A stretch of DNA of 64,000 bases from Candidatus Nomurabacteria bacterium. Lineage in GTDB: Bacteria > Patescibacteriota > Minisyncoccia > Phycocordibacterales > UBA918. Below are positions 1,024 through 39,438 of this stretch, piece after piece. The stretch's first letter is position 1; each line of letters opens with the position of its first letter. The translations under genes and the position numbers were made by a program. Under the pieces are notes generated by a model. It was not told the DNA's origin. It worked only from the letters and a program-made list of their open reading frames with translations, and did not search any database. Location of the stretch: the NCBI GenBank assembly GCA_023898585.1, contig CP060229.1:139388-203387 (forward strand), in the 5' to 3' direction.

Positions 1024-1134
1024 TAGATCATGTCCAAAAATCATACACAAAAGAGTAAATTCCTGTCTAACATTTTGTTCCGGCTCGTCGGTTTGCAAAC
1101 CTTTGGAGCTCGGAGGGTTTTTGGACATGCTCTA
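1024..1134. repeat. MITE copy 1 (internally deleted, about 111 bp) with terminal inverted repeats TAGA(g/t)CATGTCCAAAAA... and ...GGGTTTTTGGACATGCTCTA
   Basis: Same termini and internal segment (ttgttccggctcgtcggtttgcaaa ... cctttggagctcggagggtttttggacatgctcta) as the copies at 6343-6541 and 39243-39438. The sequence between the two internal tttgcaaa repeats is missing. Confidence 0.6.
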
Positions 1135-2226
1135 CTCAAAACCCCTCATCGCGGCTCCCAAGGCTACCGAGAAAGAAGGTCCTATTTCACGTAGCGTATC
1201 TTGCATAAACGCCGGATAAGCGACCTTCGAAAAGGGATTTACCATTGTCACGTCCCTGTTAAGAACTTCTTTTAAGTGAATGTCAGTCCCGGGAAACAGC
1301 GAGCCACCGCCTGACAAATGTATCACGTTGAATTCAACTCCGGTTCTACCTTCATACTCACGTATTACTTGTCCAAACTCTCTGAAAGCCCTGTCGTAAC
1401 TTCCATCGTACACTCGCTTTAATTCGGAAAAATTACTCGACTTTCTGTCCGCAGACAACTTCATTTCCTCGGCTTCTTCGAAGCTTACTTGCAAGACTTC
1501 AGCGATCTTTTCAGTAGCAATCGCACCTCCGGCTCGAATGCGATACATTCGCATAAGAAGACCTTTTCGAACAATGTATAATTTTGAAGAATTCGCTCCG
1601 ATGTCTATCACAGCGACGTTTTCTTCGTCGTTACTGTATAAACCTCTGATGGTACTGAAGCATTCTATTTCTGTTGGGGGTTTATTCAAACCGGCAAACT
1701 GCATGAGGATCTTATATCGCTCCAAAGCAGAGTTTTGAATGGCGGCGATGAGGATATTACGTTTGTTCTCATTACCCTTCTTCTCCTCTTTCGTTATCTC
1801 CACCTCAGCCCAGTCAAGCGTAACTTCACTCAGTGAAGCGGGGATAACCTTACGAGCCTCCACTCTTACCATAGCGGACAAGTCTGCGTCGGGATCAGCT
1901 TCAAAACTGACATTGGTAACAAAACTGGATGAAAGAGGCATGGAAAAAACGGCATTTCGCGCCTTGACGGCCGATTCGCGAATAACATCAACCAAAGCTT
2001 CTTGCTCTTGTCTTGCGCCCAAAGAGACAGATTCTCCTATTTTCTTTCCGACATAGGGTCCAAGCTGAACCTCACCGTAAGTGGTCAATGTAACCACCCC
2101 CTTTCTGTCTTGAAGCTCTACCACTTTCATAGAAGAAGACCCGATATCAACACCTACCACGCCCTCCGCTTCGGATATATGATCTTCGTTTTTATGTGAG
2201 GAAAAAATACTGCTTAGTAATGTCAT
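1132..2226 (-). CDS. pilM: Type IV pilus assembly protein PilM (actin-like ATPase fold)
   Basis: 364 aa. N-terminal VVGVDIGSSSMKVVEL and a later VIDIGANSSKLYIV match the paired actin-fold phosphate motifs of PilM/FtsA-like proteins. Confidence 0.75.
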   Translation of the reverse strand: MTLLSSIFSSHKNEDHISEAEGVVGVDIGSSSMKVVELQDRKGVVTLTTYGEVQLGPYVGKKIGESVSLGARQEQEALVDVIRESAVKARNAVFSMPLSSSFVTNVSFEADPDADLSAMVRVEARKVIPASLSEVTLDWAEVEITKEEKKGNENKRNILIAAIQNSALERYKILMQFAGLNKPPTEIECFSTIRGLYSNDEENVAVIDIGANSSKLYIVRKGLLMRMYRIRAGGAIATEKIAEVLQVSFEEAEEMKLSADRKSSNFSELKRVYDGSYDRAFREFGQVIREYEGRTGVEFNVIHLSGGGSLFPGTDIHLKEVLNRDVTMVNPFSKVAYPAFMQDTLREIGPSFSVALGAAMRGFE

Positions 2227-2277
2227 AAATAAAACTCATAATTATTCTACCATGAGAAATCGGTTATACTTAACTTT

Positions 2278-2886
2278 ATGAAGCAGTTACTAACAGGGAT
2301 TATTGACTTCGTCTTTCCCCCGTCGCCGGCCGGAGAATCCTTAAGGTCACTAAAACCAGATGCCGTGAAATCCCTTTATCAGCCCGGTATGTACAGGGAT
2401 ATTCATTACCTCGCCGACTACTCAAATCAGATAGTACGAAACGCCATTCTTGAGAATAAATTTCATAATAATATAAAAGCCACTCGTGTCCTTGCTAAAT
2501 TACTTGAGCAATGGTCACAGAACCAGACCAGCGCGACTATTTATGTACCTGTGCCTTTGGGCAAAAAAAGGTTTCGCGAAAGAGGTTACAACCAGATGGA
2601 GAATATTTTACTCGCAGTTCACTCAAGACTTGCCATCGAGAAAAATCTCATCAAACGGGTGGTGGAAACGGCTCCTCAGTCACATTTAGATAAAAATGCC
2701 AGAAAAAAGAATGTCCGAAACGCTTTTTCTTTTATTGGAAGTAATGTGATTTTTGAAAAAGGAGCACAATTGGTGTTGATTGATGACGTGGTCACAACCG
2801 GAGAAACGTTGCTGGAAGCAAGAAATACTCTAGTGCCAAATTTACCCCGAGGTGTCACTCTGAAATGTCTCGCTATAGCTCATTAA
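2278..2886 (+). CDS. comF: ComF-family phosphoribosyltransferase-domain protein (competence protein ComFC-like)
   Basis: 202 aa. C-terminal PRTase motif LVLIDDVVTTGETL. The size and neighbourhood (pilus genes) are typical of ComFC. Confidence 0.7.
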   Translation: MKQLLTGIIDFVFPPSPAGESLRSLKPDAVKSLYQPGMYRDIHYLADYSNQIVRNAILENKFHNNIKATRVLAKLLEQWSQNQTSATIYVPVPLGKKRFRERGYNQMENILLAVHSRLAIEKNLIKRVVETAPQSHLDKNARKKNVRNAFSFIGSNVIFEKGAQLVLIDDVVTTGETLLEARNTLVPNLPRGVTLKCLAIAH

Positions 2887-2955
2887 TGTTTAACAAGATG
2901 AGTTATAAAAAAGCCGGTTGCACGCAACCGGCTTTCTGCAAAAGTGATTTTAGAC

Positions 2956-3546
2956 TCAGTTGAAGAAGACTTGATTTCTGCCCCTCCCCTTGGCTTGGTA
3001 CAAGGCCTGATCCGCTAATCCCAGCAAATCTGAATTGGTATACGAACATGTCCAAGCACCGCCGATACTGATGGTGACCCGAGATAATCCTTTAATTTTC
3101 GGATCGAGTGATTCGACGGCAAGCCGAATCTTCTCAGCTGTTTCAATCGCTCCTTTCTTGTCGACGTCGACCAAGACAAAGGCGAACTCCTCTCCACCGA
3201 TCCTACCAATCAAATCGGTTCTGCGAATTACCCTTTTCATGGAACTTGCTACAGCTTTTAAAACTTCATCCCCTCCCTTATGAGTGAATCGGTCGTTAAC
3301 ACTTTTGAAAAAGTCTATGTCGGCACAAAGGACTGCGAGACCCTTTCTCTTAAAACGAGACAGCAAGTTGACCTCTCGGAACATGTTGCTAAAGAAGGAA
3401 CGCCTATTCGGAAGACCAGTTAAAAAATCGGTACCAGCAACCTTCTTGAGAAGGCAAATTCTCCTTCTCTGTTCCCAGACGACCACAAGCAGAAATACAA
3501 TAACGACTCCAAGTACAACATTAAAAACGTACGATAAGTGGCTCAC
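2956..3546 (-). CDS. GGDEF-domain diguanylate cyclase with a single N-terminal TM helix
   Basis: 196 aa with motifs LTGLPNRR, ADIDFFKSVND, RIGGEEF (GGEEF active site) and YQAKGRGRN. Confidence 0.8.
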   Translation of the reverse strand: MSHLSYVFNVVLGVVIVFLLVVVWEQRRRICLLKKVAGTDFLTGLPNRRSFFSNMFREVNLLSRFKRKGLAVLCADIDFFKSVNDRFTHKGGDEVLKAVASSMKRVIRRTDLIGRIGGEEFAFVLVDVDKKGAIETAEKIRLAVESLDPKIKGLSRVTISIGGAWTCSYTNSDLLGLADQALYQAKGRGRNQVFFN

Positions 3547-3634
3547 GACACACCCCCCCCAAAGAACCTAAAAAAATAATTTATTCACTTTTACTACAAA
3601 ACAGTTGGTTTATCAATATCGCCCCTTCTAGTTC

Positions 3635-5458
3635 TTATTGGTCACTTTGCATAAAACTAAACTTACTCCATTTTACACTTTCCACAAAATCAACTTCCGA
3701 GGCGATGCTTACCTCGCCGGTTTCTTCATCGCTCTTCAAGAAATAAACAAACTTCAATTCCGGATCGGGCATATTCTTCTCGTTCACATACTTATTAGCC
3801 ATATCTAGAGGTGAAACGATTTTTCTGCCGTTTACCACAGAAGTTTCGAAGTGGAGACCGTTTTTCTCAGGCAAGCGTTCAAAATATGCGTCGTACACCA
3901 ACTCCGAACAAACTAGCGCGTCACGAGTATCAAAATCAAAATTGAAGTCATACGGTTTGCCCATATTAGCAAAAGCCTTTAACAAAGCTTGCAGGATGTC
4001 AGATTTGTTCAAATTTGGTCTTAAGACCACCACAAAATCCGCGTTAGCCGATTTTACCAACGTCTGTAGAACCACTCCCGGCTCAATGGCTTCCACCACC
4101 TTAACCGACTCGCCATTCGAAGTTTTATCCTTGAATTTCTCATAGACTTCCGGTGTTACACTGGCCATTAATTCGGACAGACTGTCGTAACCGTCATAGG
4201 GAAATTCCGAAGCAAAGTATTCATCCATCGTCTCAAGGTCTCCGGTATACAGAGCACTGTGTGTCCAAAAACCGGGAATACCCACGTTGCTTACATGCCA
4301 ATTACGCCGTTGCAACATAATGTCCCCAGGCAACATCTTCTTCTCCATCAGTAAAATATTCTCTTCTTTTATCAACCCCTCTTTGCCTCTAGTCGAAATT
4401 ATCGCTCTCCCCATGGCGGTTGCTACCACTTTTTGAATCGGAAACCATGCGTCAAATAAATTTTGCTCAATACTATCCGACAACGCATCAGGTGCCTGCA
4501 GTAAAGTTTCTCCGAAATTTGAACTCAAGTACTCATAACTTTCATATGCCTTGTCTCGCAAAAGGACAAACGAGTAATTGTCCATATCATCGTCACCGAT
4601 CATTGTCGACTGATACAAGTACCCTCCGGTCAGACGCACTCTGGTTTTCGGTTCATAGAATCTGGACACCATTTCGGTGTAAATATTCCCCCTCCCAACA
4701 GAAGGCACTGTTTGGTTTAGAGCTTTTTTCTTGTGTTCACTACCATCAACCACCATCATCATGCGGTGTATGATTTCGTATTTTTTGATATACAAACTAT
4801 AAGAAATAAGGAACGAGGTCAGTCGTGTGTTCCATAATCGATACGGAATACCGGCATAATATCGATGTTCGTCGGTTAAAGACTCCGAATAAACAACAGC
4901 CTGGATAAAGTCATCGAAGGCCAGTGCTATATCTTCCGTGGCATTTACATCCGTTTTTTCCGTCGACAAAACTTCCAATAAATCATTGCCGGTCGACTCT
5001 AAGTAATCCATGGCGGTAACCGATAGATATAGATCATCCTGAACTCTGCTTTCAATTTCAACATCTGTCATGTCGGCAAACGGTCGATAGTCAAGTGGGC
5101 GCACCCACAAGAACACAGCGGAAACCAACAACAAAAGTGTCGCCAGGATAATCCTCCGGTGTTCTTTTTTTATAAAATCTTTAGCCAGACCGTAAGAGTG
5201 ATAGCGACGCCAAGTATCTCTACTCAAATAAATTCTGTAAACAAACGGTATGTAAGAGAGTATATATAGGGTGACCCCGATCACAACATGAAAGGGGTAA
5301 AACAACTGAGTACCGACAACCGCGAGAGAGGCCAGCGTTATCAAGGCTGATTCCAAAAACAACCGCACGAGTTGGCGACGGCGCTTTTGTAAAGCCTGCA
5401 CCATATCGCCGGTAGTGTTGACCACTCTCTCCTTATGCCGACGAAACCAAGCCATCAT
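3635..5458 (-). CDS. Large membrane-anchored protein with a C-terminal permuted papain-like (YaeF/YiiX, NlpC/P60-superfamily) domain
   Basis: 607 aa. The N-terminus has about 3 TM helices. The C-terminal third carries LPGDIML...WHVSNVGIP...HSALYTGD followed by DALVCSELVYDAYF, matching the conserved His then Cys order of permuted papain-fold amidases and acyltransferases. Confidence 0.5.
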   Translation of the reverse strand: MMAWFRRHKERVVNTTGDMVQALQKRRRQLVRLFLESALITLASLAVVGTQLFYPFHVVIGVTLYILSYIPFVYRIYLSRDTWRRYHSYGLAKDFIKKEHRRIILATLLLLVSAVFLWVRPLDYRPFADMTDVEIESRVQDDLYLSVTAMDYLESTGNDLLEVLSTEKTDVNATEDIALAFDDFIQAVVYSESLTDEHRYYAGIPYRLWNTRLTSFLISYSLYIKKYEIIHRMMMVVDGSEHKKKALNQTVPSVGRGNIYTEMVSRFYEPKTRVRLTGGYLYQSTMIGDDDMDNYSFVLLRDKAYESYEYLSSNFGETLLQAPDALSDSIEQNLFDAWFPIQKVVATAMGRAIISTRGKEGLIKEENILLMEKKMLPGDIMLQRRNWHVSNVGIPGFWTHSALYTGDLETMDEYFASEFPYDGYDSLSELMASVTPEVYEKFKDKTSNGESVKVVEAIEPGVVLQTLVKSANADFVVVLRPNLNKSDILQALLKAFANMGKPYDFNFDFDTRDALVCSELVYDAYFERLPEKNGLHFETSVVNGRKIVSPLDMANKYVNEKNMPDPELKFVYFLKSDEETGEVSIASEVDFVESVKWSKFSFMQSDQ

Positions 5459-5463
5459 GTTAT

Positions 5464-6315
5464 CTAATCATTTAAAATACCGATCGAACGTCGCAAGTCT
5501 TGACTGTATGTCTCACTCTTAACATCAACTTTGCTGTTATCTATGAAATGGTTTTTCTTGACTTCCGCAAAAGGCAAGCTCGAATCTATCAACTCTAGCT
5601 CGTAAAGAATTTCGTCAAAGAAACCGGGCAGAATAGTCTTCCAAGTCAGAGGAAAATCCACGTCAGACATCTTCTCGACCGGCCGGGTGAGTTCATTGGT
5701 GCAATTATGTGTGAGAGTGTTGTACATGCGGGGAGATTCATAAACATCATTCACTTCACGGGCAATCAGATTAAACAATTCGCGTGCTTGGTCTGGAGTG
5801 GCCTTGGTGGGATACAAGTATACTCTTTCGTTGCGATGTCCGGTTCTTACACCAACAATGTCCTCTTCGGAACCGACCACGTAGATGATTTCAAATTGTC
5901 TCAGTATTCCCAAGAGTGGTGAAAAAGTCTCATCCGACTCGCGTCTGGTTTCAAGAGAAACCACTATATTCTTACCGTCGACAAAACCGAAACTCAGGAA
6001 GATGTGGGCGAGACCCTCGAAGTCATCAAAGTGTGAAATAAAAACATCGACTCCGGTCATCTCATCGAGATCGAAAGTGCGGATTTCGTACTTAACATCG
6101 GCCGATTTGACCGCCGTCCATTCAAAATTTCTGTAGTTATCTATTGTGATCTCGTTACCGGCAGAAGAATAGGAAACGTGTGGCAAAGCCTCATGACCCA
6201 ACTCCCAATCGCGCTCGTGCGAGGGGCGAAATAAAACCAGTAAGAGTAAATAAAATAATAAAACAGCAACAGCAAAGTATGCTAGCCAACGAAGCCATCT
6301 GTGTTTTTTAAACAT
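5464..6315 (-). CDS. DUF4105-like membrane-anchored protein (Lnb-like family). The start is most likely the internal Met (MFKKHRWLRW...).
   Basis: N-terminal TM helix, then a domain ending in YNTLTHNCTNELTRPV (the NCT motif typical of DUF4105). The ORF-track N-terminal extension to 6429 runs through MITE sequence and is probably not coding. Confidence 0.45.
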   Translation of the reverse strand: MFKKHRWLRWLAYFAVAVLLFYLLLLVLFRPSHERDWELGHEALPHVSYSSAGNEITIDNYRNFEWTAVKSADVKYEIRTFDLDEMTGVDVFISHFDDFEGLAHIFLSFGFVDGKNIVVSLETRRESDETFSPLLGILRQFEIIYVVGSEEDIVGVRTGHRNERVYLYPTKATPDQARELFNLIAREVNDVYESPRMYNTLTHNCTNELTRPVEKMSDVDFPLTWKTILPGFFDEILYELELIDSSLPFAEVKKNHFIDNSKVDVKSETYSQDLRRSIGILND

Positions 6316-6342
6316 CACTTTATTGTACGCCAGTTTAGTACC

Positions 6343-6541
6343 TAGAGCATGTTGAAAAAACTCTACACAAAAGAATAAGTTGTTGTCTAATATTTTGTTC
6401 CGGCTCGTCGGTTTGCAAAATTTGGTCAAAAAACCGCTATAATTTCTTGCCGTACATCAGTATGGCTCGAAATTCTATCAATTTTTTGTCTCAAATTTTG
6501 CAAACCTTTTGGAGCTCGAAAGGTTTTTAACCATGCTCTAC
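6343..6541. repeat. MITE copy 2 (about 199 bp, degenerate termini)
   Basis: About 90% identical by eye to copy 3 across cggctcgtcggtttgcaaaatttggtcaaaaaaccgctataatttcttgccgtacatcagtatggctcgaaattctatcaattttttgtctcaaattttgcaaacc. The termini are gagcatgttgaaaaaactctacac and ggtttttaaccatgctcta. Confidence 0.6.
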
Positions 6542-6806
6542 CGTGAATCCATAAACTCATCCGCCCTTATGTAGAACCATAATAATGGGTATCGTAACCG
6601 TTTCGGGTTCGGTGATACAAGGTGGTCTACCGGTACGATATACAATGGTTGGGATATGGCTATCTACCCAACAGTACAAATCCACGATATGCTGTGAAGA
6701 CAAAAAGAGCATAGTACGTTGTATTAAGTTGGTACTTATATATCGTACGTGCTCTTTTTGTGTTATGTGGCCTTAATTAACAAGTTTGGAGTTTATGGAT
6801 TCACGG
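6541..6806. repeat. About 265-bp fold-back element with nested inverted repeats. Either a second MITE-like family or a structured ncRNA.
   Basis: The outer 19-bp perfect inverted repeat is ACCGTGAATCCATAAACTC (6541-6559) with GAGTTTATGGATTCACGGT (6788-6806). Inner inverted repeats are caaaaagagcatagtacg/cgtacgtgctctttttg and ggtacgatata/tatatcgtac. There is no ORF. Confidence 0.5.
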
Positions 6807-6898
6807 TCTGCTGAATTGACGGTTTTCGTTTATAACGTGTGGTATATTTACCTGGTATTCTAAATTATAAAAAATTTATTACTTAACCCCAGCTATAT

Positions 6899-8404
6899 AT
6901 GAGCAACAACAATCAACAATTGCTCGATTACATTAAAGATCAATTAAGGGCGGGTTTTCCCGTAGAATCCATCAAGAGGTTATTACTAGAGAACGATTGG
7001 GCGGAAGACGTAGTCACGGAAGCTTTTTCCGAGTTGGGCATAGAAGTGGCAGTTGGTAATGAACACGAGAATTCATTAGATGGAACATTTTCCGTGAATG
7101 AAAAAATTCGCGAGAAAAACTTTGCCCGAGAAAACCTAACCATGGACAAAATAATCGAGAAGTTCATACCGATTGCGGGTGCGATTTTTCTTATTGTTGG
7201 TTTTGGATACTTAATCTACGCGAACGCGTGGGTTCATTTACCAATGGAAATAAGGATCGGCTTAGGTTTCTTCTTTAGCGTCGTAATCATCGGTGGTTCA
7301 TTCTCCTTTTCCGAAAAGATGCGATATTTCGCCGATATCGGAATCGGTTCCGGAGTCCTGTTGCTCTACGCCACTTTGATTTTTGGCTCAAGAACAACCG
7401 AGCTGGCGACTGATTTTGTAATCCCGGAAATAGTGACACTTTACACAGCGGTAATGTTCACTGTCGCCATCTCTTATTTTGCTTCAAAAAGAAATTCGAA
7501 AGTTATATTGATGCTAGGAATGATTGGTGCCTACATCACACCTTTCGTGATCGGACAAAATGATGTCTGGGTAAATAACGTTTCGTTTAATGCTTATTTG
7601 ATATATTTCTTTGCGGTGAATGTTTCCGTTTTCTTGATGGGAAGGGAAATTTCAGTACGTGACATCATACCTTTAAACATAATCGGTTTGTTTATAGGTG
7701 TTTCAACTCTATGGGGACTTGCCGCCTCAGAAGGCATTAATGCGACTAGGGCAGATAACTTCTTCACCAGTGAGTTGGTAACAGCGATATTATTCTTGGC
7801 ACTGGTGGTATTCTCCATCTGGAGCATTCTACTTTCCGCTAAAAGATTCAGTGAGAAAGACGACGGTTATTTGTCTCTCGGTTATTTGGCGCCGATTATC
7901 TGGTTTGCCTACAACGTAGGCAACCTGGATTCCGTCAATGACGTGACGGTTGGAATTCTATATGCCGTCATCGCCATTTCCTGTTTTGTGGGGTGGCACG
8001 TCTTGCTTGGTACCCAAACCAGATTCCAACACACTGCCTTGTATGCCGCCGGTCTACTCTCCGCCTTTCTGGCTGTTTTTGCCTTTTTCGAAGAATTCGA
8101 TATCTATACCAGCATGCTAATTGCTTACTCCAGCCTTATTTTCGGCGTCCTGCATATCGTCGACTCCGGAAAATCAGAGCGTTATATCAGCTACATCATA
8201 GTTTCATTAGCCGGATCAATTCTCTCCATTCAGCACATACTGGAAGCCAACGTACAGTACGAAACATTCCTAATCGTAGTCTCACTCTTGCCAGCCATGA
8301 TTGGCTGGGTACAAAGGCCACGGGTACGGTCAGTCTCCTTGAACACAACAAACTCAAGAAGGAAAACGAACAACTCAAACAAATCATCGGTGACCTCACC
8401 ATAA
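6899..8404 (+). CDS. Polytopic membrane protein (about 12 TM helices, short cytoplasmic N-terminal domain). Its 3' end is fused to and disrupted by an IS3 fragment.
   Basis: 501-aa ORF. The last roughly 35 codons (VQRPRVRSVSLNTTNSRRK...) are read from IS3 orfA sequence in another frame, so the native C-terminus is lost. Confidence 0.5.
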   Translation: MSNNNQQLLDYIKDQLRAGFPVESIKRLLLENDWAEDVVTEAFSELGIEVAVGNEHENSLDGTFSVNEKIREKNFARENLTMDKIIEKFIPIAGAIFLIVGFGYLIYANAWVHLPMEIRIGLGFFFSVVIIGGSFSFSEKMRYFADIGIGSGVLLLYATLIFGSRTTELATDFVIPEIVTLYTAVMFTVAISYFASKRNSKVILMLGMIGAYITPFVIGQNDVWVNNVSFNAYLIYFFAVNVSVFLMGREISVRDIIPLNIIGLFIGVSTLWGLAASEGINATRADNFFTSELVTAILFLALVVFSIWSILLSAKRFSEKDDGYLSLGYLAPIIWFAYNVGNLDSVNDVTVGILYAVIAISCFVGWHVLLGTQTRFQHTALYAAGLLSAFLAVFAFFEEFDIYTSMLIAYSSLIFGVLHIVDSGKSERYISYIIVSLAGSILSIQHILEANVQYETFLIVVSLLPAMIGWVQRPRVRSVSLNTTNSRRKTNNSNKSSVTSP

Positions 8405-8995
8405 AAATGTCCATTGAGGCTAAAAAGGGGCTCTCCAAGGGATGGTGATCGGTTATTCACGTACGCATCACTATTATCACCATAAACAACCTCAAAAGGA
8501 TTGGCACACCAAGCAACTGATTGAGGCTGTGTTACGTGAGCACCCAGGCTATGGCCACAAGCGCTTGGCCACACACCTCAAGATCAACAAGAAACGAGTG
8601 CTGAGAGTTATGAAGTTGTTTGGTATTAAACCATACCGGAGAACTACTCCTAAAGTGTTTAAAAGCCTAAAGGTAGTGTGTTTCCCAACTATTTAATGAG
8701 TGAGGAACCACGAGGGCCAGGTGATATATATGCCTCAGACTTCACCTATCTTAAATATCGAGGAAAGTGGTTGTATGTGGCTACAGTACTCGATACGTAC
8801 ACTAGAGATAGTTGGTGTATCGATATTGACAACACATCAGACACAGCTCGTCATTAACGCTTTGGCTTCAGCAGTGCTCCATCGAGCTCCTCCACGGATT
8901 ATTCATTCCGATCAAGGGAGTGAGTACTGCTCAAAAGACTACACTGCCTTAACCCAAAAGCTTGGTATCAAACAGTCCATGAGTGCCCCCCGGTC
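8295..8995 (+). mobile_element. Decayed internal fragment of the IS3-family element (3' part of orfA plus a frameshifted, truncated orfB). Both ends are missing.
   Basis: The encoded WLGTKATGTVSLLEHNKLKKENEQLKQIIGDLTIKMSIEAKKGLSKGW and MVIGYSRTHHYYHHKQPQKDWHTKQ... are near-identical to the intact copy at 17424-18549. The orfB region has several frame breaks and stops after ...SMSAP. Confidence 0.75.
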
Positions 8996-9768: not shown

Positions 9769-9806
9769 TATTTTAATGTGTTGATCCTACGCCCGTTTAG
9801 GTAGAG

Positions 9807-16600: not shown

Positions 16601-17423
16601 TATTTTGTATTTTTCGGGCTAAAGAAACAATCTAGGACCTAAAACACCAAAACCACGGCTCTGTATAGCCGTGGTTTTATGTTTATCTAGCTCGCATGGT
16701 TAATAAACGAGTTAGATGTCCCTATTGTTTATCATTACAAACTAAAAAGAAAGGTAAACAAAGTGGTAGACAGCGCTATGGTTGCAACGATTGTGGTAAA
16801 CGATTTCAAACTAAGCAGAGAGAAACAGGGTTGGTTAATAAATTATGGGAAGAGTATACACATCAAAAACAAACGCTGACCGAACTGTCTAACAAATACA
16901 AGAAGAGTCACGTCTGGGTACGTACACGATTAGATCAAGTTAAAACCTCAATACCAAACATACAACCACAAAAGACGGTTATCGTAGCTGACACCACCTT
17001 CTGGGGACGACACTACGGTGTCTGTGTCTTTAGATCATGGAACTTACGAAGAAACATTTGGTGGGGTGAGGTTGAGACTGAGAAAGTGTCTCACTATCAC
17101 TACGCTCGTAAATTATTAGAAGAACGTGGTTGGACATTCATCGCTGCCGTAGTGGACGGAAGGCGTGGATTAGCAACGGTTTTTAAGGATATACCAGTAC
17201 AAATCTGTCAGTTTCATCAACTGAAGACCGTGACCAAGTACTTAACTAGAAAGCCAAAGACTGAAGCTGGTAAAGAACTGCGAAAACTGGCTTTAACACT
17301 CACGAAAACAAACGAAGAAGACTTTGCTAAAGCTCTAACTATTTGGGAGGAGAAGTATCATAATTTCTATACTGAGAAAACGTACGTTACCTGTACTAAC
17401 CATTGGTACTACACACACAAGAA
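16601..17423 (+). mobile_element. Zinc-ribbon DDE IS element (IS1595/IS1-like) copy A, 3'-truncated by the nested IS3 insertion
   Basis: Identical to copy B (42570-43610) from the left end through ...TCTNHWYYTHKN. It then abuts the IS3 terminal IR at 17424. Confidence 0.7.
16696..17423 (+). pseudogene. Transposase of IS copy A (truncated after about 242 codons)
   Basis: N-terminal CPYC...CNDCGKRF zinc ribbon. The sequence diverges from copy B at residue about 243, where IS3 begins. Confidence 0.7.
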
Positions 17424-17440
17424 TGGAAGGTACCCCAAAA

Positions 17441-18217
17441 TTAAGACACCTTTTGCAAGTCTTTTAATAATACCTCATGTTGGTCTCTAAACAACTGTGG
17501 TGGTTGCTTTAGAGCGGAGTGGATACGTTTTTGATTGTAATAATTAATAGTCTGATAAATATTAGCCACTAACTCACCGAGAGTATCAAACCGGTTTGGG
17601 TCACCTAAGTCCAATTTGAACCCTTTATAGAAACTCTCTTGGTAACCATTCTCCCAGGGACAACCGGGGGCACTCATGGATTGCTTGATACCAAGTGATT
17701 GTACTAGGTTGGTATAGTCTTGACTGGTGTACTCACTCCCTTGATCAGAGTGAATGATACGAGGTGGTGGGCGGTGAAGCACGGCACTCGCTAAAGCATT
17801 TAATACCAGTTGAGTATTATGGGTGGTTAAGACTGACACTCCAACTATCTCTCTGGTATAGACATCTAGTACCGTTGCTACGTATAACCATCTATCTTGA
17901 TACTTAAGATGAGTGAAATCGGAAACGTAAATGTCACCAGGTCCAACTGGAGATTCACTCATCAGGTAGTTGGGAAACACACTACCTTTAGGCTTTCTAT
18001 AGACTTTTTTGGCTGTTCTTCGATAAGGTTTGATGTCAAAGAGTTTCATCACCCGTAGCACCTTCTTCTTGTTCATCTTGAGGTGTTGCGATAACCGTTT
18101 GTGTCCGTACCCTGGATGCTCACGAAGAGCCATCTCAATCTGTTGTTTGGTGTGCCAATCCTTTTGAGGTTGTTTATGGTGATAATAGTGATGCGTACGT
18201 GAATAACCGATCACCAT
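17441..18217 (-). CDS. IS3-family transposase OrfB (DDE/rve integrase core)
   Basis: 258 aa with DDE region ...YVSDFTHL...IIHSDQGSEYTS...WENGYQESFYKGFK. Confidence 0.8.
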   Translation of the reverse strand: MVIGYSRTHHYYHHKQPQKDWHTKQQIEMALREHPGYGHKRLSQHLKMNKKKVLRVMKLFDIKPYRRTAKKVYRKPKGSVFPNYLMSESPVGPGDIYVSDFTHLKYQDRWLYVATVLDVYTREIVGVSVLTTHNTQLVLNALASAVLHRPPPRIIHSDQGSEYTSQDYTNLVQSLGIKQSMSAPGCPWENGYQESFYKGFKLDLGDPNRFDTLGELVANIYQTINYYNQKRIHSALKQPPQLFRDQHEVLLKDLQKVS

Positions 18218-18486
18218 CCCTTGGAGAGCCCCTTTTTAGCCTCAATGGACATTTTTATGGTGAGGTCACCGATGATTTGTTTGAGTTGTTCGTTTTCTTT
18301 CTTCACCTTGTTGTGTTCAAGAAGACTCACGGTACCTGTGGCTTTGGTGCCGAGCCAATCATAGATGGTTCGACTACTGATACCGTATTGCTTAGCCGTA
18401 TCACTGACACTCAAGCCTTCGTGTTTGATTTTATTGATAACTTCGGCTTTTATCTCAGCTGAGATCTTGTATCCTTTCTTGGACAT
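18211..18486 (-). CDS. IS3-family transposase OrfA (HTH)
   Basis: 91 aa: MSKKGYKISAEIKAEVINKIKHEGLSVSDTAKQYGISSRTIYDW..., a helix-turn-helix. Confidence 0.8.
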   Translation of the reverse strand: MSKKGYKISAEIKAEVINKIKHEGLSVSDTAKQYGISSRTIYDWLGTKATGTVSLLEHNKVKKENEQLKQIIGDLTIKMSIEAKKGLSKGW

Positions 18487-18639
18487 ATTGCTTGTATTGT
18501 TTAAGTGATAATACTTGCAAAAGTTGTCTTAAGAAAGGGGTACCTTTCAACAAGCCGCTTTTTTGTCGGACTCAGAGGATTATCTAAAGATAAAACAGTT
18601 TATCCAAAAAATCGGAACGAACCCCACGGTTCGTGACAA

Positions 18640-22079: not shown

Positions 22080-22440
22080 AGCCAATTTTGCAGCACCTCG
22101 CGAACTCCCGAAACAAATCTCTTTTCTTTGCTTTTTCATTTTTCGCCCCCCATTTTTTCTTGTTAAAAGCGGAAAAGAAAAGAGTTTGTTTCGGTCGGCG
22201 AAACGGAGTGGAGCCGAGGGCGCAACTGAGCGGGTTATTAGTCAAACTCTTGCGGATTTTGTTCGTAGAGCGTTCGAACTTCGTTCAAAAGCACCGCACT
22301 TTAGGACAATCAACGGAAACAGAACCCGAGGGCCGCCGCCGCGCAAGCGGCGGCGCCGTGCCATGTGGCGGCAAAGCAAAGGGCGAACGGCGCGGCACAG
22401 AGAGCGTGCGCACGGAAATGGACGGGTTCGTCGTGCTTGT
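22080..22440. repeat. GC-rich repeat arm R2
   Basis: Reverse complement of R1. Its inner part (22300-22440) is also repeated, again inverted, at 24040-24180 inside the recombinase 3' end. Confidence 0.6.
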
Positions 22441-22687: not shown

Positions 22688-24212
22688 TTTCCATATGAAA
22701 GATACTCCGCAAAATTTTATCTCTACGCTCGCAAGTCCACGGACGAAGCGCAGAGGCAAGTGCTAAGCATAGAGGCGCAGCTCCATGAATTGAGAGAGTT
22801 TGCACGAAAAGAGAATTTGCATATCGTCCGTGAGTTTGTTGAGAGCAAGACGGCGAAAGAACCAGGACGAGAAGTTTTCAATGAGATGCTTGCGAGCGTC
22901 GAGAACGGCGATGTTGAAGGTATCGTAGCGTGGCACGCGGATAGGTTGGCGCGCAATAGTGTAGATGGCGGCAAGATTATTTATCTGCTGGATGTTGGTA
23001 AGTTGAAGTACTTGAAGTTTCCAACCCTGTGGTTTGAAAATACACCGCAAGGTAAGTTCATGCTCAACATCGCCTTCGGCCAATCCAAATACTACGTTGA
23101 TAACCTTTCGGAGAACATCAGGAGGGTATTCGCCAGAAGCTCCGCAATGGCGTATGGCCAGGATATGCACCTATCGGATATTTGAATGACAAAACAAATC
23201 GCACTATTGTCCCCGATACAGACAAGGCAACCCTCATCCGCAAAGCATTTGAGCTTTATGCAACTGGCGAATACCCCTTATTGAAACTCCGAAAGGTTAT
23301 CAACGAATCTGGCTTGGTTGGGAAGCGGGATAAACTCCTTTCAATTTCAAACTATCAGTACCTACTCAAGAATCCAATCTACTACGGAGCTATCAGATAT
23401 GGTGGTGAACTCTATGACGGAGTCCATGAACCGATTATCACTAAGAAACTTTTGATGCGGTACAGAGCATCATGGGAAGCAAGTCGCGCACTACTCGCGC
23501 ACCCAAACTGAAGCCGTACAGTTACCGCGGCGTGTTCCGTTGTGGCGAGTGTGATTGCATGATAACCACCGAGACTCAGAAAGGACACAACTACCTTCGC
23601 TGCACCAAACGCCGCGGAGTATGTACCCAACCCTATGTGCGCGAGGAAGCAATAGCCGAGCAAGTACGAGAAGAAGTCCAAAAAGTTTCTTTGCCGTCCG
23701 CGTGGGTGGATGCGTGCGTGCAAATTTTAGAAAAAGAACGCACGCACCACCAACACGCGGAACGGTCGTCCGTTCAAAAACTCGAAAGTGAGATAACAAC
23801 GATCGAGAAGAAACTCGACGCTTTGCTTGATCTCCAACTTGATGGTTCCATTACACACACCGAGTACACAAACAAAAAGCAAGTGCTCCTAAATCGCAAG
23901 ACCGACCTCAAAGAGCAAATCGCCGTTTTTGAGCGAACGAGTGATAATCGGTTCGAACCTTTGACCCGCTTCCTTAAATCGCTCAACCAAGCCGGAAAAA
24001 TCACTTCACGAGGAAATCTCGAAGAAAATCGAGATTTCCTCAAAAAGATCGGTTCGAACCCGTCCATTTCCGCGCGCACGCTGTGCGTGCCGCGCCGTTC
24101 GCCCTTTGCTTTGGCCGCCACATGGCACGCCGCCGCTTGCGCGGCGGCGGCCTCGGGTTCTGTTTCCGTTGATTGTCCTAAAGTGCGGAGAGTATGGGAT
24201 TTGAACCCATGA
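22688..24212 (+). pseudogene. Large serine recombinase (resolvase catalytic domain, recombinase domain, zinc ribbon and coiled coil) with at least two homopolymer frameshifts and no canonical start codon
   Basis: Catalytic YLYARKSTDEAQRQVLSIEAQ (Ser nucleophile), then GIRQKLRNGVWPGYAPIGYLNDKTNRTIV in the -1 frame after a G3 run near 23125, then ...IITKKL/SIMGSKSRTTRAPKLKPYSYRGVFRCGECDCMITTE (zinc ribbon) after a T4 run near 23440. Confidence 0.75.
24040..24180. repeat. GC-rich repeat R3 (third, partial copy of the R2 inner segment, R1 orientation)
   Basis: The reverse complement of 24040-24180 matches 22300-22440 (ggacaatcaacggaaacagaacccgag...gcaaagggcgaacggcgcggcac...). Confidence 0.55.
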
Positions 24213-24272
24213 AGGGGGTTAGCCCTTACCTCGTTAGCAGTGAGGCGCTTTCGACCACTCAGCCAACTCTCC
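24186..24272 (-). tRNA. tRNA-Ser (anticodon GCU), class II with long variable arm
   Basis: Reverse-strand sequence is GGAGAGTTGGCTGAGTGGTCGAAAGCGCCTCACTGCTAACGAGGTAAGGGCTAACCCCCTTCATGGGTTCAAATCCCATACTCTCCG. Acceptor stem of 7 bp, T-loop TTCAAAT, anticodon loop CTGCTAA. Confidence 0.85.
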
Positions 24273-29791: not shown

Positions 29792-30081
29792 TTAAATCAA
29801 GTTGTTTTCATTTAAAAATTGAAACCACTTTTGATAACATTCTTTAGCTGACTCATAACAATCATACTTTTCTCCTTGGTATACGAAATCCCATCTATAT
29901 TGATTGCGCACCAGGCAAGCGTTTTTTCTGACACGCCGACAAAACCTACATTTCAATCTCTCCTTCCTTTGTTAGGGAGACAAAAACTGTCGGAATGTTA
30001 ATTTTTGTGTGTTGGTGTTTAATAGAACTTTCCGGATCACTCGATCCTTTCTTGGTACTTTTTTCAAAGTGTTTATGCCCA

Positions 30082-30351: not shown

Positions 30352-30359
30352 AATAGATT

Positions 30360-31615: not shown

Positions 31616-31619
31616 AGAC

Positions 31620-32780: not shown

Positions 32781-33175
32781 AGTAATGAGTATACGCTTAT
32801 CTTGTTACGGCGCAACAAAATAAAAAGACTGCGCCGATACTCCTGACGCAGTCAATAATTTGTAGAGGGGATTAGCCTCTTGAAACAGACCTTCTATCTC
32901 AATAATTCAGAAATATGAATTTGGTAAACAGACTAAACAACAGTCAAAATGAATCTGTTCCTAAGATATGCCCGAAGGCTGATCACCTCCTTTTAGAAAT
33001 TTGGGAGAGAAAGACAGAAGTTGTGTTTTGCTTTAAGCGCATGTTTATTGTACCTCCTATCTATATATAACGGACGGCAAATACCGCCCACTTATGTAAC
33101 ACCTGAAATGATGACAAATGTAAACAGGAAGAACTCTTGTTACTTACATAAAACTAACGAACGATTGTCCAAAGC

Positions 33176-33204
33176 CCTTGATTGCGTTATAGTATCAATC
33201 ACCA
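33176..33204 (+). promoter_or_regulatory. Sigma-70-like promoter for tRNA-Ile
   Basis: TTGATT - 17 nt - TATCAAT (TTGATTgcgttatagtatcaatc), ending about 5 nt before the tRNA 5' end. Confidence 0.35.
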
Positions 33205-33207
33205 AAA

Positions 33208-33280
33208 CCGTCATTAGCTCAGTTGGTAGAGCGCGGAGCTTATACCTCCGTGGTCCTTGGTTCGAGTCCAAGATGACGGA
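33208..33280 (+). tRNA. tRNA-Ile with anticodon UAU (AUA-decoding tRNA-Ile2 type)
   Basis: CCGTCATTAGCTCAGTTGGTAGAGCGCGGAGCTTATACCTCCGTGGTCCTTGGTTCGAGTCCAAGATGACGGA folds as a cloverleaf. Anticodon stem CGGAG/CTCCG, loop CTTATAC. Confidence 0.75.
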
Positions 33281-33382
33281 CAAACGAACGCGAACCGATT
33301 TACTTCACTTCATGTGAGGTGTTTTTTGCACTTCAGTTAACAAACACAAATAATCTGAGTAAACTTGGTATAATAACTTGGC

Positions 33383-34894: not shown

Positions 34895-34901
34895 TTAGCC
34901 T

Positions 34902-36149
34902 ATGCGCAATCTACGTATAGGTCTCCTACTCGGCTTACGTCAGATACAAAGAGCCAACAAATGGACGACGCTCCTGATCATTTTTGTGATGATGTTCACC
35001 TTTTTAAACCTGATCGCAGTTTCTGGAATTCTGGTCGGTCTTATTACCGGCGCCGAGCGGGCAGTAAAAGCTGAAGCGCTTGGCGATCTTATTCTGACCG
35101 AGAAAGACAGTGAGGACCGCCTTCTCGATACTGAATCTATTCTTCGGGAACTGGCCACCTATCCTGAAATCGAAGCGTTCTCGGTCAGATATACCGGTGG
35201 CGGAGAATTAGAAGCTCACTACAAGGAACGAAGAAGTTTAACCGCCGAGCGTGACATCGCCCAAGTAACAGTAACCGGGGTTGACCCAATACTGGAAGAT
35301 CAAATGTCAGGACTCAGTGATACTGTGATTAAAGGTGAGTATTTAGACCCTAACGAAGAGGGTTACATTTTGATCGGCTACTACTACCTGGAGGAATTTG
35401 CGGAACAGTTTGGAGACATCTTCGACACTATTGCCAATGTGGAACCGGGAGATACAGTTAGACTCACCGTAGGGGACATTTCCAAAGAATTAATTGTGAA
35501 AGGTATTATCCAGTCGAAAGTTGATCAAGTTTCTCTCAATACCTATATTACCGAACGTGAGTTTCGCCGTCTGTTTGGTCGTCTAGATCGGAACGCAGAC
35601 CAGATTGTTATCCGCGTCAAAACCCCCGGCACAGAAGCAACATTAAAAGAAGCTTTTGTTGCCAACGGACTTGATAGGCTCGCCAAAATACAAACTTACG
35701 ATGAGGGCAAGCCTAAATTCATAACCGATATCAAAAACACTTTCAACACTTTAGGTTCTTTTATCGGCTCAATCGGTATTGTCGTTGCTTCAATCACTAT
35801 CTTCATCATTATTTTCATCAACGCCATGTCACGCCGGCAACAAATCGGTATCTTGAAAGGAATCGGAATCGAGAGACGTGTAATTGAAATCGCTTACGTT
35901 TTTCAAGCGGCGACCTACGCGCTCATCGGTTCCGGTCTCGGTGCTCTTCTCACCTACGGCTTCCTAATTGGCTACTTTGAGAAAAATCCGATTCACTTCC
36001 CTTTTAGCGACGGCATTCTGGTAGCGCCCCCGGAAGAAACCTTTATTCGTTTTCTGGTCTTGTTTGTCATCACTTTGATCGCTGGCTTTCTACCGGCCTG
36101 GATGATTGTTCGACAAAACACCCTTAATTCCATCTTGGGACGAAAGTAA
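34902..36149 (+). CDS. ABC transporter permease (FtsX/MacB-type, 4 TM)
   Basis: 415 aa. N-terminal TM, a large extracytoplasmic domain and a C-terminal FtsX-like 3-TM bundle. Confidence 0.7.
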   Translation: MRNLRIGLLLGLRQIQRANKWTTLLIIFVMMFTFLNLIAVSGILVGLITGAERAVKAEALGDLILTEKDSEDRLLDTESILRELATYPEIEAFSVRYTGGGELEAHYKERRSLTAERDIAQVTVTGVDPILEDQMSGLSDTVIKGEYLDPNEEGYILIGYYYLEEFAEQFGDIFDTIANVEPGDTVRLTVGDISKELIVKGIIQSKVDQVSLNTYITEREFRRLFGRLDRNADQIVIRVKTPGTEATLKEAFVANGLDRLAKIQTYDEGKPKFITDIKNTFNTLGSFIGSIGIVVASITIFIIIFINAMSRRQQIGILKGIGIERRVIEIAYVFQAATYALIGSGLGALLTYGFLIGYFEKNPIHFPFSDGILVAPPEETFIRFLVLFVITLIAGFLPAWMIVRQNTLNSILGRK

Positions 36150-36264
36150 AAATGAACAAACGAGCGAAGCGACTATTGTGAATTTTGTTCCGAATCTGCG
36201 CCATACCTAGCGCAGATTCCTGGGACTCTCCAATAATGTTACTGAACACTCTGGTATTATTAAA

Positions 36265-36960
36265 TTGAAAATGACAACAATCATCAACGCAACCAATATT
36301 CATAGGAAGTTCGGTGAAGGAAACCTTGTTACGCATGTTTTGAAGGGCATAGATTTCCAGGTCAAGCAAGGTGAGTTTGTAGCAATAATGGGACGATCCG
36401 GCGCCGGAAAGTCCACCCTCTTATATCAACTTTCAGTTTTAGACCAACCAACCGAAGGCTCTGTAGTTATCGATGACACAGATGTGTTGAAATTGAACGA
36501 GAAGGAACGCACATCTTTTCGTCTCAATACTCTCGGCTACATCTTTCAAAACTACGCGTTGATACCAGACTTATCAGCTGAAGAAAACGTCATGGTGCCT
36601 CTTTTAATGAAGGGTCTGACTTGGGAAGAAGCTAGAAGCAAGGCTCAGAAATCTATCGACGACGTGGGTATGTCCGGAAAGTACAACAATTTGCCGGCAG
36701 AACTATCGGGTGGCGAGCAACAGCGTATTTCAATCGCCCGTGCCATTGCCGGCAAACCGAAAATCCTTTTTGCCGATGAACCGACTGCCAATCTCGACAG
36801 CGTGTCCGGTCAACAAGTGATAGACCTAATAACAACACTTAACCGAGAAAACGGCCAAACGATAGTGATGGTCACGCACGAGAGAGAGTACGCGGTCAAC
36901 TGCCAAAGAGTCGTTCACATTGAGGACGGCAAGATCGTCGACGAGGAGAGATTGCGCTAG
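36265..36960 (+). CDS. ABC transporter ATP-binding protein (MacB/LolD-like)
   Basis: Walker A GRSGAGKST, signature LSGGEQQRISIARAI, Walker B ILFADEPT and H-loop VTHE. Confidence 0.9.
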   Translation: MKMTTIINATNIHRKFGEGNLVTHVLKGIDFQVKQGEFVAIMGRSGAGKSTLLYQLSVLDQPTEGSVVIDDTDVLKLNEKERTSFRLNTLGYIFQNYALIPDLSAEENVMVPLLMKGLTWEEARSKAQKSIDDVGMSGKYNNLPAELSGGEQQRISIARAIAGKPKILFADEPTANLDSVSGQQVIDLITTLNRENGQTIVMVTHEREYAVNCQRVVHIEDGKIVDEERLR

Positions 36961-37005
36961 CGACAAACCACTAAACTTACTTAACTCCAATGGTTTGTCA
37001 CTTTT

Positions 37006-39123
37006 CTACCTAATTTCTCTTTCCCCGTCCGGTCTGATTTCAAGACTTCTGGTCGGATCACCGACTTTCTCATCTTCTTTGTACATTTCTTCAAAAGCAT
37101 CTTTTATTTCGACTCCCTCTTTTTTTAACAAGGCTTCGTATTCATCTCGCTCCAAAGTTTCTACCTCAATCAAGCGCTTGGATATGACGTCGAGTGCTTT
37201 ACGATGTTTGGTAAGAATCTCTCTCGCCTTATTTTTTCCTTCTTCAATAATACGAGAAACTTCCTCGTCGATAGCTTTGGCTACTTGTGGTGAATAACCT
37301 CTATCTTCAGAAGAACCTCCCCCGATTAATCTACCGCCTGTTCCTTCCAAAGCTACCGGACCAAGCCTTTCGCTCATACCATATTTAGTAACCATATCTC
37401 GTGCCATGTTAGCGACAACCTGCAGATCATTTGATGGACCAGTAGAAAGATCGTCAAAGACCATCTGTTCTGTTACGTAGCCACCGAGCGTCATGGCGAT
37501 ATCATCCAAGAATTCTTTTCTGGTGTGCATGCGACGATCTTGATCAGGGAGCTTGAGAGTATAGCCAGCCGCTCTACCTCGGGAAATGACAGATATCTTT
37601 TGTACCGGATCAGCATAAGGAAGCACGGAAGCAACAAGAGCGTGCCCCACTTCATGATAAGCGGTTACAAGCTTCTCATGTTTTGAAAGCACATGACTCT
37701 TCCTTTCCGGACCAAGCATGACTTTTTCGATTGAACGTATTAAATCAAATTGACCGACTTTCTTTCGCTGTTCCCTAGCGGCCAAGATTGCTCCCTCATT
37801 CATAAGTGAATATAAATCAGCTCCTGAAAAACCCGGGGTACGTTGAGCAATTATTTCCAGATTCACGTCTTCTTGCAAAGGCTTCTTACGTGCGTGTACT
37901 TTAAGGATCGCTTCACGGTCCTTCCGGTCTGGTAGGTCAATCGTCACTCTTCTATCGAAGCGCCCTGGTCTAAGTAACGCTGGATCAAGCACATCAGGAC
38001 GATTGGTGGCAGCCATCACAATGACTTTTGCGTTTGGTTCAAAACCGTCCATCTCAACTAAAATCTGGTTGAGGGTTTGTTCTCGTTCGTCATTTCCTCC
38101 ACCCACTCCGGTGCCTCGCACCCTACCAACCGCGTCTATTTCATCGACAAATATTATTGACGGGGCTGACTTCTTAGCCATCTGAAACAAGTCTCGCACC
38201 CGAGAAGCGCCAACGCCGACAAACATCTCAACAAATTCAGAACCTGAGATCGAGAAGAAAGGCACACCGGCTTCGCCAGCTACCGCCCGCGCCAATAATG
38301 TCTTCCCTGTACCGGGCGCACCCATCATCATTACTCCTTTCGGTATCTCCGCGCCGATATCAAGAAACTTCTTTGGGTTTTTGAGGAAATCAACGATTTC
38401 TTCCAACTCTTGCTTAGCTTCTTTGGCGCCAGCCACATCCTTGAAGGTAACTTTTTGTGTAGAGTCATTCGGATCAATCATCCGCGCTTTGGAATTGCCG
38501 AAATTTAAAGCCTGCATACCGGCTCCTTTTACCGACCGTGTAAAGAACCAAATAATCACACCCAGAAATAGTATAGGAAACAAAAACGGAGCGAAGTTAC
38601 CAAACCAGTACATGAATCCTGTCTCACGTTGCACGTCAATCGTAACTTTGGAAAGCTCCTCGACTGTCACGCCCAAGTTGATTAGTGATTCGGTAATGGA
38701 AGCATCGACTTCACGCCTCGCCTCGCCGGGATTTTTAGTTTCGTCGACATAGGAAATTTCCAAGGCCGACCCGCGCACCACTATCTCTTTAACTTCGCCA
38801 GCTTTTACCTGTTTTACAACTTCTGTAATAGTAAGTTCTTCGGGCTTAACTCTTGATTCTGTGATGTACGAAAAAACGGCAGTTATAAAGATGAGTAGCA
38901 ACACCGTCGAGAGCATGTTGTTCCAGAAATTTCCCGGGCCAACGTGCATTTTTTTTCCAACCTGTCGCAAATTACCACCTACCTTATTAGGCCCGGCAAA
39001 GGGTGGTGCAGGCTTCGGAGTTTTCTCTTTGTCCTCAGAATTGCTGTCGTTTGAGACCTCGGGATTTTCCGCAATTTCCGATTTTTCATCTTTTATTTTT
39101 TCAGTGTTTTCAGATTTATCCAT
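37006..39123 (-). CDS. ftsH: ATP-dependent zinc metalloprotease FtsH
   Basis: 705 aa: [31 protein letters not shown], the second-region homology and zinc site HEVGHAL. Two N-terminal TM helices and an acidic C-terminal extension. Confidence 0.9.
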
Positions 39124-39242
39124 ATGTTGGCCATTATACAGAAAAACCCTTTAATTGCCATGGAAATTGCGAGAAGTGTGTCGCTAAAAATATTACAGTG
39201 TTGTGAAAAGACTGTCCCCCAAGTTTGTTTTTTAATCTAGTC

Positions 39243-39438
39243 TAGAGCATGTCCAAAAACCCTACACGAAAGAGTAAATTCTTCTCTAATATTCTGTTCC
39301 GGCTCGTCGGTTTGTAAAATTTGGTCAAAAAACCGCTATAATTTCTTACCGTACATCAGTATGGCTCGAAATTCTATCAATTTTTTGTCTCAAATTTTGC
39401 AAACCTTTGGAGCTCGGAGGGTTTTTGGACATGCTCTA
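39243..39438. repeat. MITE copy 3 (full length, 196 bp) with perfect 20-bp terminal inverted repeats
   Basis: TAGAGCATGTCCAAAAACCC ... GGGTTTTTGGACATGCTCTA. It carries an internal TTGTAA-N19-TATAAT promoter-like box oriented toward smpB. Confidence 0.7.

Follow-up and report, generated by a model that had tools for sequence, protein, structure and literature searches.

A probable family of TA-flanked miniature inverted-repeat transposable elements in a Parcubacteria-type bacterium

The closest described counterparts of the element reported here are the Correia (NEMIS) elements of Neisseria and RUP of Streptococcus pneumoniae. We analysed a 64,000-nucleotide stretch of contig CP060229.1 (hereafter the window), in which three copies of a short, non-coding inverted-repeat sequence were found; a fourth copy lies to the left of it, on a contig of the same species. 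We interpret these copies as a family of miniature inverted-repeat transposable elements (MITEs). Correia elements are fold-backs of 100-200 nt with terminal inverted repeats (TIRs) of about 20-26 nt and a TA duplication, they stand beside or between genes, and they exist in long and short forms which differ by an internal segment; this segment, restricted to the long form, carries an integration host factor (IHF) consensus site and putative promoters (PMC2229807). All these traits recur in the window element, the IHF site and the promoters being consensus matches only. The two families differ in their hosts (Proteobacteria for Correia, a bacterium of the Candidate Phyla Radiation, or CPR, here), in copy number (hundreds in Neisseria, four seen here) and in the location of the putative promoters, which are at the ends of Correia elements and convergent inside the core of ours. 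The Correia TIR, TATAGTGGATTAACAAAAATCAGGAC, also differs from that of the window element, TAGAGCATGTCCAAAAACCC.

RUP of Streptococcus pneumoniae is likewise a small non-coding element with TIRs which inserts at TA, and it is thought to be mobilised in trans by the IS630-family transposase of IS630-Spn1. RUP tends to insert beside other mobile elements (PMC2229807), just as copy 4 abuts a second fold-back, which we call element B. However, a parent insertion sequence with matching TIRs is known for RUP, which is 107 bp long with short TIRs, and none was found here. IS630, ISY100 and the Tc1-mariner superfamily, together with Stowaway-type MITEs, share the specific insertion at TA and the duplication of this dinucleotide, and terminal repeats of about 20-30 bp are sufficient for them in cis (PMC2170065); in our case no transposase gene is present inside the element or nearby. 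TA-flanked bacterial MITEs with long and short forms are already known (PMC2229807). Finally, the enterobacterial and rickettsial elements ERIC, YPAL and RPE form stable stem-loops at intergenic or gene-end positions, and in RPE and YPAL one reading frame is open across the whole element (PMC2229807). One frame is also open throughout copy 3, but no gene was seen here to carry an in-frame copy, and the translated frame has no homologue among 5.8 billion proteins.

Since the window PilM and SmpB proteins are 70-83% identical to proteins of Candidatus Kaiserbacteria, Pacebacteria and Nomurabacteria, the host is a Parcubacteria-type CPR bacterium. The same DNA was retrieved from the metagenome-assembled genome (MAG) GCA_020428745.1, 100% identical except for one single-nucleotide polymorphism (SNP) in 8.3 kb, and from contigs of at least eight metagenome samples.

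Copies, termini and insertion sites

The copies, their diagnostic termini and the neighbouring element B are as follows (coordinates preceded by L020 refer to the same-species contig).

1024-1134, plus strand: MITE copy 1, short form, 111 nt including both TA, without the 85-nt apical core; bordered by the pilM stop codon on one side and the pilN promoter on the other, in antisense orientation to the pil genes
1133-1134: TA target-site duplication of copy 1 (partner at 1024-1025), first two bases of the minus-strand pilM TAG stop codon
6343-6540, plus strand: MITE copy 2, full length, 198 nt, with the most diverged arms of all copies; between the divergent Lnb_N (DUF4105) and DUF2339 genes
39243-39438, plus strand: full-length MITE copy 3 (196 nt), whose 20-nt TIRs are perfect; in the spacer that separates the divergent genes ftsH and smpB
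39243-39262, plus strand: left terminus of copy 3, TA followed by GAGCATGTCCAAAAACCC
39419-39438: right terminus of copy 3, exact reverse complement of 39243-39262
L020:11870-12064: MITE copy 4, in the spacer separating pilC from the pilin gene, about 5.4 kb to the left of the window start
L020:11655-11869: element B, a 215-nt fold-back adjoining copy 4, with ends GAGCATGTCttCAAAAC and GAGCATGTCCAAAAAt

The window contains exactly three copies according to BLAST and to an nhmmer profile search. When the 20-mer TAGAGCATGTCCAAAAACCC was searched with up to 3 mismatches, 4 matches were obtained in the window, all of them at element ends, for 0.01 expected. Every copy has the same orientation. In copy 3 the two ends match over 20/20 positions, or over 22 nt when the flanking C/G is included. 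Copies 1 and 2 reach 17/20: the three mismatches of copy 1 are at its left end, which reads TAGATCATGTCCAAAAATCA, and in copy 2 the same triplet is altered at both ends. The perfect 20-bp TIRs attributed to all three copies by an earlier note on this sequence are thus a property of copy 3; the boundaries given there were exact for copies 1 and 3, and copy 2 ends at 6540 instead of 6541.

Relative to the full-length copies, copy 1 lacks exactly 85 nt (about 85 bp had been estimated) between two TTTGCAAA direct repeats. This 8-mer is its own reverse complement and is located at the base of the apical stem, so that it is found on both sides of the stem. Copy 1 would be a deletion derivative which lost the hairpin apex by slippage between the palindromic TTTGCAAA repeats.

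Each of the four copies is flanked by TA. For copy 1 the origin of this TA can be read from relatives. The pilM gene is a minus-strand open reading frame (ORF) at 1132-2226, whose homologues contain PilM_2/FtsA domains, and in three relatives with about 70% nucleotide identity (L013, L014 and L015) its end reads TTTTGA(G/A)-TAG followed by (G/TA)TTTCCACAG, with a single TA. The window reads TTTTGAG-TA-(109 nt)-TA-GAGTGTCCACAG at the same place. Because three relatives hold this single-TA empty site, the comparison indicates that the pilM stop codon provided the TA into which copy 1 inserted, and that this TA was duplicated in the event. On the minus strand, the terminal CTA of copy 1 indeed reads as the TAG that stops pilM, as had been noticed; the ancestral stop was already TAG, and the end of the element seems to supply the codon because the insertion hit its TA.

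The spacer lengths fit such insertions. The pilM-pilN spacer measures 162 nt in the window and 52-56 nt in four relatives, and the ftsH-smpB spacer measures 403 nt against 137 nt in the closest relative found (L042); in one relative a patatin gene lies between ftsH and smpB. For copies 3 and 4 the relatives were too diverged for the insertion point to be aligned, and the comparison was made on spacer lengths and downstream promoters. A C-TA-C/G context is found at three of the four sites. The Lnb_N gene (PF13387, formerly DUF4105) has its ATG at 6315, and copy 2 lies 27 nt upstream of it, which agrees with the position reported earlier for this copy. None of the four insertions disrupts a gene: each is either at a gene end or 22-82 nt upstream of a promoter that is native or of native type.

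The earlier proposal had been made conditional on further copies in the genome, and one was found within 10 kb of the window. Copy 4 is 97% identical to copy 3, has perfect 20/20 termini and lies in the same chromosomal orientation as copies 1-3. A single TA is common to copy 4 and to the end of element B, as would be expected had copy 4 inserted into a TA flanking element B. Element B also folds strongly (-77.7 kcal/mol, z = -9.2) and its interior is unrelated to that of the MITE; unrelated interiors bounded by the same termini would be expected if one transposase recognises those termini. Another terminus-like sequence, GAGAATGTCTGAAAACC, was observed at L020:11594-11660, 60 nt upstream of the left end of element B. 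The pilC-pilin spacer is 679 nt long in this species and 280-390 nt long in relatives, and it seems to hold several layers of decayed elements.

The copies form stable hairpins. The minimum free energy of copy 3 as RNA is -83.7 kcal/mol against -34.8 kcal/mol for shuffled sequences (z = -13 on either strand), and the fold-back runs from end to end across the whole element. The z-scores of copies 2 and 1 are -8.8 and -4.8, respectively. Searches of Rfam and of plasmid and phage sequences with the element yielded no match.

On its right-hand side, the 10 kb next to the window contained no copy, and the relatives' loci contained neither a copy nor a terminus-like sequence. Exact-word scans with an invariant core 20-mer over the GTDB species genomes and the JGI metagenomes, and with an 18-mer over the viral collection IMG/VR, returned chance matches only, each aligning over just 18-21 nt when checked by BLAST. 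A scan of IMG/VR with the exact termini (TIR 18-mer) gave one match, rejected as due to chance because it fell in a GC-rich phage-like contig, with neither TA nor transposase. These exact-word scans thus yielded no copy from any other species. The TIR string and the accessions of the assembly and samples were also looked up in the literature, without a match. Short-read contigs from many samples terminate inside the element, which is the behaviour of a repeat and which the four known copies suffice to explain. A search for other regions of the genome via the multi-copy IS256-family transposase led only to collapsed 1.3-kb contigs.

The copies are thus 111-198 nt long, carry TIRs, lack a transposase gene, are flanked by a duplicated TA and are dispersed. 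We consider it well supported, with a probability of roughly 0.8, that they constitute a lineage-specific MITE of a Parcubacteria-type CPR bacterium: a non-coding fold-back of about 194 nt with 18-nt TIRs (GAGCATGTCCAAAAACCC) and a duplicated TA. The MITE family announced by the earlier note is upheld by the TA duplication, the empty site in three relatives, the fourth copy, element B, the hairpin and the lack of coding capacity. It is an element of an ordinary kind in an unusual host, and a new lineage-restricted family. As to its movement, a transposase encoded elsewhere would bind the terminal repeats and excise the element, in a cut-and-paste reaction in trans, and the excised element would then enter a TA dinucleotide, which is duplicated. 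Such insertion, with duplication of the target TA, is characteristic of the IS630/Tc1-mariner superfamily, to which we infer that the transposase belongs.

Several points weigh against this interpretation. No transposase with matching ends was found in the window. Proteins of the IS630 family (DDE_3 or NF033545) were detected neither among about 40 scanned window ORFs nor in the Pfam-annotated gene calls of the loci covering the remaining window; apart from a split serine recombinase, the genes of this kind in the window are those of the IS256 and IS3 families and other rve genes. The IS256-family and IS3-family elements were considered as parents and discarded, their termini being unrelated to those of the MITE. 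A TA duplication of 2 bp is also made by some IS5-family subgroups. Only four copies were seen, in 83 kb of sequence of this species, the termini of copies 1 and 2 are degraded, and a cleanly alignable empty site exists at one of the four sites. No presence/absence polymorphism that would demonstrate recent movement was seen: same-species contigs, from at least eight samples, are all identical and contain no empty alleles. Lastly, the public collections were searched by exact 18-20-mers, which would miss diverged relatives.

The conserved core and competing interpretations

The part of the full-length copies that is missing from copy 1 belongs to an apical core, in which the following features were located, along with a hairpin of the right arm and the promoter boxes of native genes.

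39309-39405 (copy 3) and 6410-6506 (copy 2): apical hairpin core, nearly invariant among full-length copies
39312-39342, plus strand: promoter-like box of copy 3, TTGTAA, 19 nt, TATAAT, without TG upstream of the -10
6413-6443, plus strand: promoter-like box of copy 2, TTGCAA, 19 nt, TATAAT
39371-39402, minus strand: opposite box of copy 3, TTGCAA, 20 nt, TAGAAT; its extended -10 is TGATAGAAT (39371-39379)
6472-6503, minus strand: opposite box of copy 2
39375-39387, plus strand: IHF-consensus match of copy 3, TATCAATTTTTTG, for the E. coli consensus WATCAANNNNTTR; also at 6476-6488 in copy 2
39404-39428, plus strand: weak terminator-like hairpin and T-run in the right arm of copy 3, CCTTTGGAGCTCGGAGG GTTTTTGG
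969, 6315, 20198, 27479, 33383, 39123, 49523, 50680 and 56420: genes with an upstream TAnAAT (often TGnTAnAAT) box

Over the three full-length copies, 2 of the 97 core columns vary, against 18 of the 101 columns of the arms, termini included (Fisher p = 2e-4). This signal comes mostly from copy 2, whose arms are about 13% diverged. In the window its core carries a single base difference, in the MAG none, and apart from this base the 8.3 kb compared between the two assemblies are free of SNPs. The low variation could be due to selection acting on the core, to gene conversion or to a nested core of younger age, and with this conservation the core may have some function.

The sequence layout of native genes gives a standard for judging the boxes of the core. 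In pilN, lnb, recG, ftsH, xfp and others, a TAnAAT box stands 5-9 nt before the start codon, and several of these boxes are TGn-extended; such a layout would imply that leaderless transcripts and -10-dependent promoters are widespread in this CPR genome. The TGnTAnAAT motif occurs 14 times in the window, for 13.5 expected, and 6 of its 12 occurrences outside the MITE are 6-17 nt before a start codon.

It is possible that the element is a mobilisable promoter cassette, as the earlier note put it. Copies 2, 3 and 4 all contain the box it described, TTG(C/T)AA-19 nt-TATAAT, and copy 1 does not. This box points towards smpB in copy 3 and towards the DUF2339 gene in copy 2; in copy 4 it is antisense into the 3' end of pilC. 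The opposite box, which the note did not mention, faces a gene start in all three full-length copies: that of lnb in copy 2, of ftsH in copy 3 and of the pilin gene in copy 4. The boxes thus converge, and each would read via the apex and out of the far arm. Neither is called by our sigma-70 scan, which accepts spacers of 16-18 nt: the plus-strand box goes unreported because its 19-nt spacer is outside this range, and the spacer of the opposite box is 20 nt. The plus-strand box also lacks the TGn extended -10 present at several native promoters. The 9-mer TGATAGAAT of the opposite strand is identical to that of the xfp gene promoter (49531-49539), and this box resembles the native promoters better than the plus-strand box does.

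Between copy 2 and the DUF2339 gene, the window segment 6701-6759 consists of an A-run, a stem of about 15 bp and a T-run (AAAAAGAGCA...TGCTCTTTTT) and looks like a bidirectional terminator. A rightward transcript from copy 2 would reach this structure ahead of the DUF2339 gene.

One interpretation of these boxes, which extends the cassette idea to both strands, is that the MITE core was exapted as a working bidirectional promoter, or as a promoter with a nucleoid-protein site, driving or modulating the flanking genes. It accords with the low variation of the core, with its perfect TATAAT on one strand and TGATAGAAT on the other, with the position of half of the non-MITE TGnTAnAAT sites near start codons and with the gene starts facing the opposite box. 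Each core also contains one match to the IHF consensus WATCAANNNNTTR (7 in the window for 4.1 expected), which we regard as a candidate site, and a precedent exists in the Correia elements, whose long form alone combines putative divergent promoters with an IHF site (PMC2229807). However, besides the long spacers, the antisense course of the copy 4 box into pilC, the contribution of copy 2 to the conservation signal and the lack of overall enrichment of TGnTAnAAT, the flanking genes possess promoters of their own 22-82 nt beyond the element: those of ftsH, pilN and the pilin gene are conserved in relatives, and a TACAAT box of native type precedes the lnb ATG by 6 nt. Because of these promoters the element would be dispensable for the expression of the four genes, and the loss of the core from copy 1 had no visible consequence. 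We hold exaptation to be a tentative possibility. A stronger version, in which the 97-nt core would be a portable regulatory module maintained by selection (a pair of convergent promoters that read outwards, with a nucleoid-protein site, or else a gene for a small RNA), spread by transposition and rewiring pilus and housekeeping expression in a reduced CPR genome with mostly -10-only, leaderless promoters, seems to us improbable.

Two observations were made on the pilus genes next to copies 1 and 4. A T(T/G)TCCACA motif is conserved about 30-40 nt upstream of the -10 of pilN and of the pilin gene (window 980-1020, minus strand; L020:12070-12230), and a 5' untranslated-region hairpin, TTTCAGATACGCAGCTGATATCTGAAA, upstream of the pilin gene is conserved in all relatives. 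They may represent a pilus-gene regulatory site or leader.

The element might instead act at the RNA level, its co-transcribed hairpin serving as a stabiliser of mRNA 3' ends, as an attenuator or terminator, or as a target of a double-strand RNase, in the manner of Correia/NEMIS and ERIC. The great stability of the fold on both strands, the location of copy 1 directly past the pilM stop codon and of copy 4 downstream of pilC, and the weak terminator-like hairpin with its T-run in the right arm would suit such a role, and copy 2 retains a bulged stem although both its ends have changed. Across the copies, 7 stem pairs were kept by a one-sided change and 1 by a compensatory change, some of them via G-U, but six are broken in at least one copy. 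By our own estimate, this ratio of kept to broken pairs is no better than transitions alone would give, and we rejected selection on RNA structure as its cause. Moreover, the full stem is not followed by a canonical U-tract, copies 2 and 3 are in divergent promoter regions, where co-transcription is unexpected, and transposon inverted repeats explain the hairpin equally. An RNA-level role is for these reasons unlikely.

The differences between long and short forms could also be read in the reverse direction, the 111-nt form being original and the 85-nt core a younger palindromic insertion at the hairpin tip, which duplicated the 8-nt TTTGCAAA. The core does have 8-nt direct repeats at its flanks and inverted termini of its own (AATTTGGTCAAAAAA / AATTTGAGACAAAAAA), and its much lower divergence compared with the arms is what one would expect of a more recent insertion. 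Yet no solo core exists in the 83 kb of this species, and such an origin requires three independent insertions at the same site, failing which the age difference stays unaccounted for. The IS256-family element, the sole one here with an 8-bp duplication, has termini unlike those of the core. A palindromic 8-mer in a stem is automatically a direct repeat, which favours a slippage deletion, and the Correia short form was likewise interpreted as an internal deletion (PMC2229807). We find a composite origin hard to credit.

Some IS5 subgroups generate duplications of 2-3 bp containing TA and have ends starting with GA or GG. An IS5-family (IS427/ISL2-type) transposase as the mobilising enzyme, in place of an IS630/Tc1-mariner one, would suit the element end, which begins GAG once TA is set aside, but it is a poor candidate given the strict TA duplication and the C-TA-C/G context at 3/4 sites, a classic IS630 pattern (PMC2170065), and a transposase of neither family was found for comparison.

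Mobile-element load around the copies

The other mobile elements of the window are listed below.

42579-43605: IS256-family element (Zn-binding variant, NF048019), with TIRs of about 27 nt and an 8-bp duplication CGCATTTT
16615-17423: second IS256-family copy, truncated by an IS3-family element
16696-17490 and 42660-43589: IS256-family transposase genes
17424-18549: IS3-family element with 40-nt TIRs
55003-55042: solo IS256-family end

The MAG contigs break at the IS256-family repeat. An rve (integrase-core) ORF of 292 aa at 51782-52660 is distinct from the IS3-family element. At 8301-8994, a 694-nt IS3-like fragment (inverted, 72-84% identical to 17666-18368) stands in place of 2062 nt present in the MAG contigs L021 and L023; the DUF2339 gene encodes an intact protein of 746 aa in these two contigs and 501 aa in the window.

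Copy 2 lies in a segment of about 21 kb (window 3600-24500) flanked by one gene for a GGDEF protein and one for a Zip transporter. In three relatives, these two genes are adjacent (two cases) or separated by a small FUR gene (the third). The segment comprises a C92 peptidase, Lnb_N, MITE copy 2, DUF2339, MscS, a two-component system, ApbE, the IS256 and IS3 elements, a Band7 protein and the split serine recombinase; it ends at a tRNA (24186-24272), its GC content rises to 0.54 at 20-22 kb, and it looks like an integrated island. Within it, inverted repeats of about 137 nt with 92-100% identity, at 22294-22430 and 24055-24188, surround a 1.6-kb segment containing a resolvase N-domain ORF (22760-23185) and a recombinase zinc-ribbon ORF (23472-24212). 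The right repeat overlaps the tRNA gene by a few bases. The segment 22294-24188 may be an invertible or integrative module.

CPR (Patescibacteria) genomes are small and streamlined, and the load observed here, with the MITE, element B, two IS256-family copies, an IS3-family element, an rve gene and a recombinase island, is unexpectedly high for such a genome. Text searches of the literature on MITEs or insertion sequences in Patescibacteria, CPR and Parcubacteria retrieved no description of MITEs. In practical terms, the element accounts for the breaks of short-read assemblies at these points and can also serve as a strain-typing marker. If its parent transposase were found, it would provide a small natural substrate for an IS630-type system of an uncultivated lineage. 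If the conserved core proved to be transcriptionally active, the element would represent Correia-like regulatory DNA spread by transposition, in a phylum whose regulation is almost unstudied.

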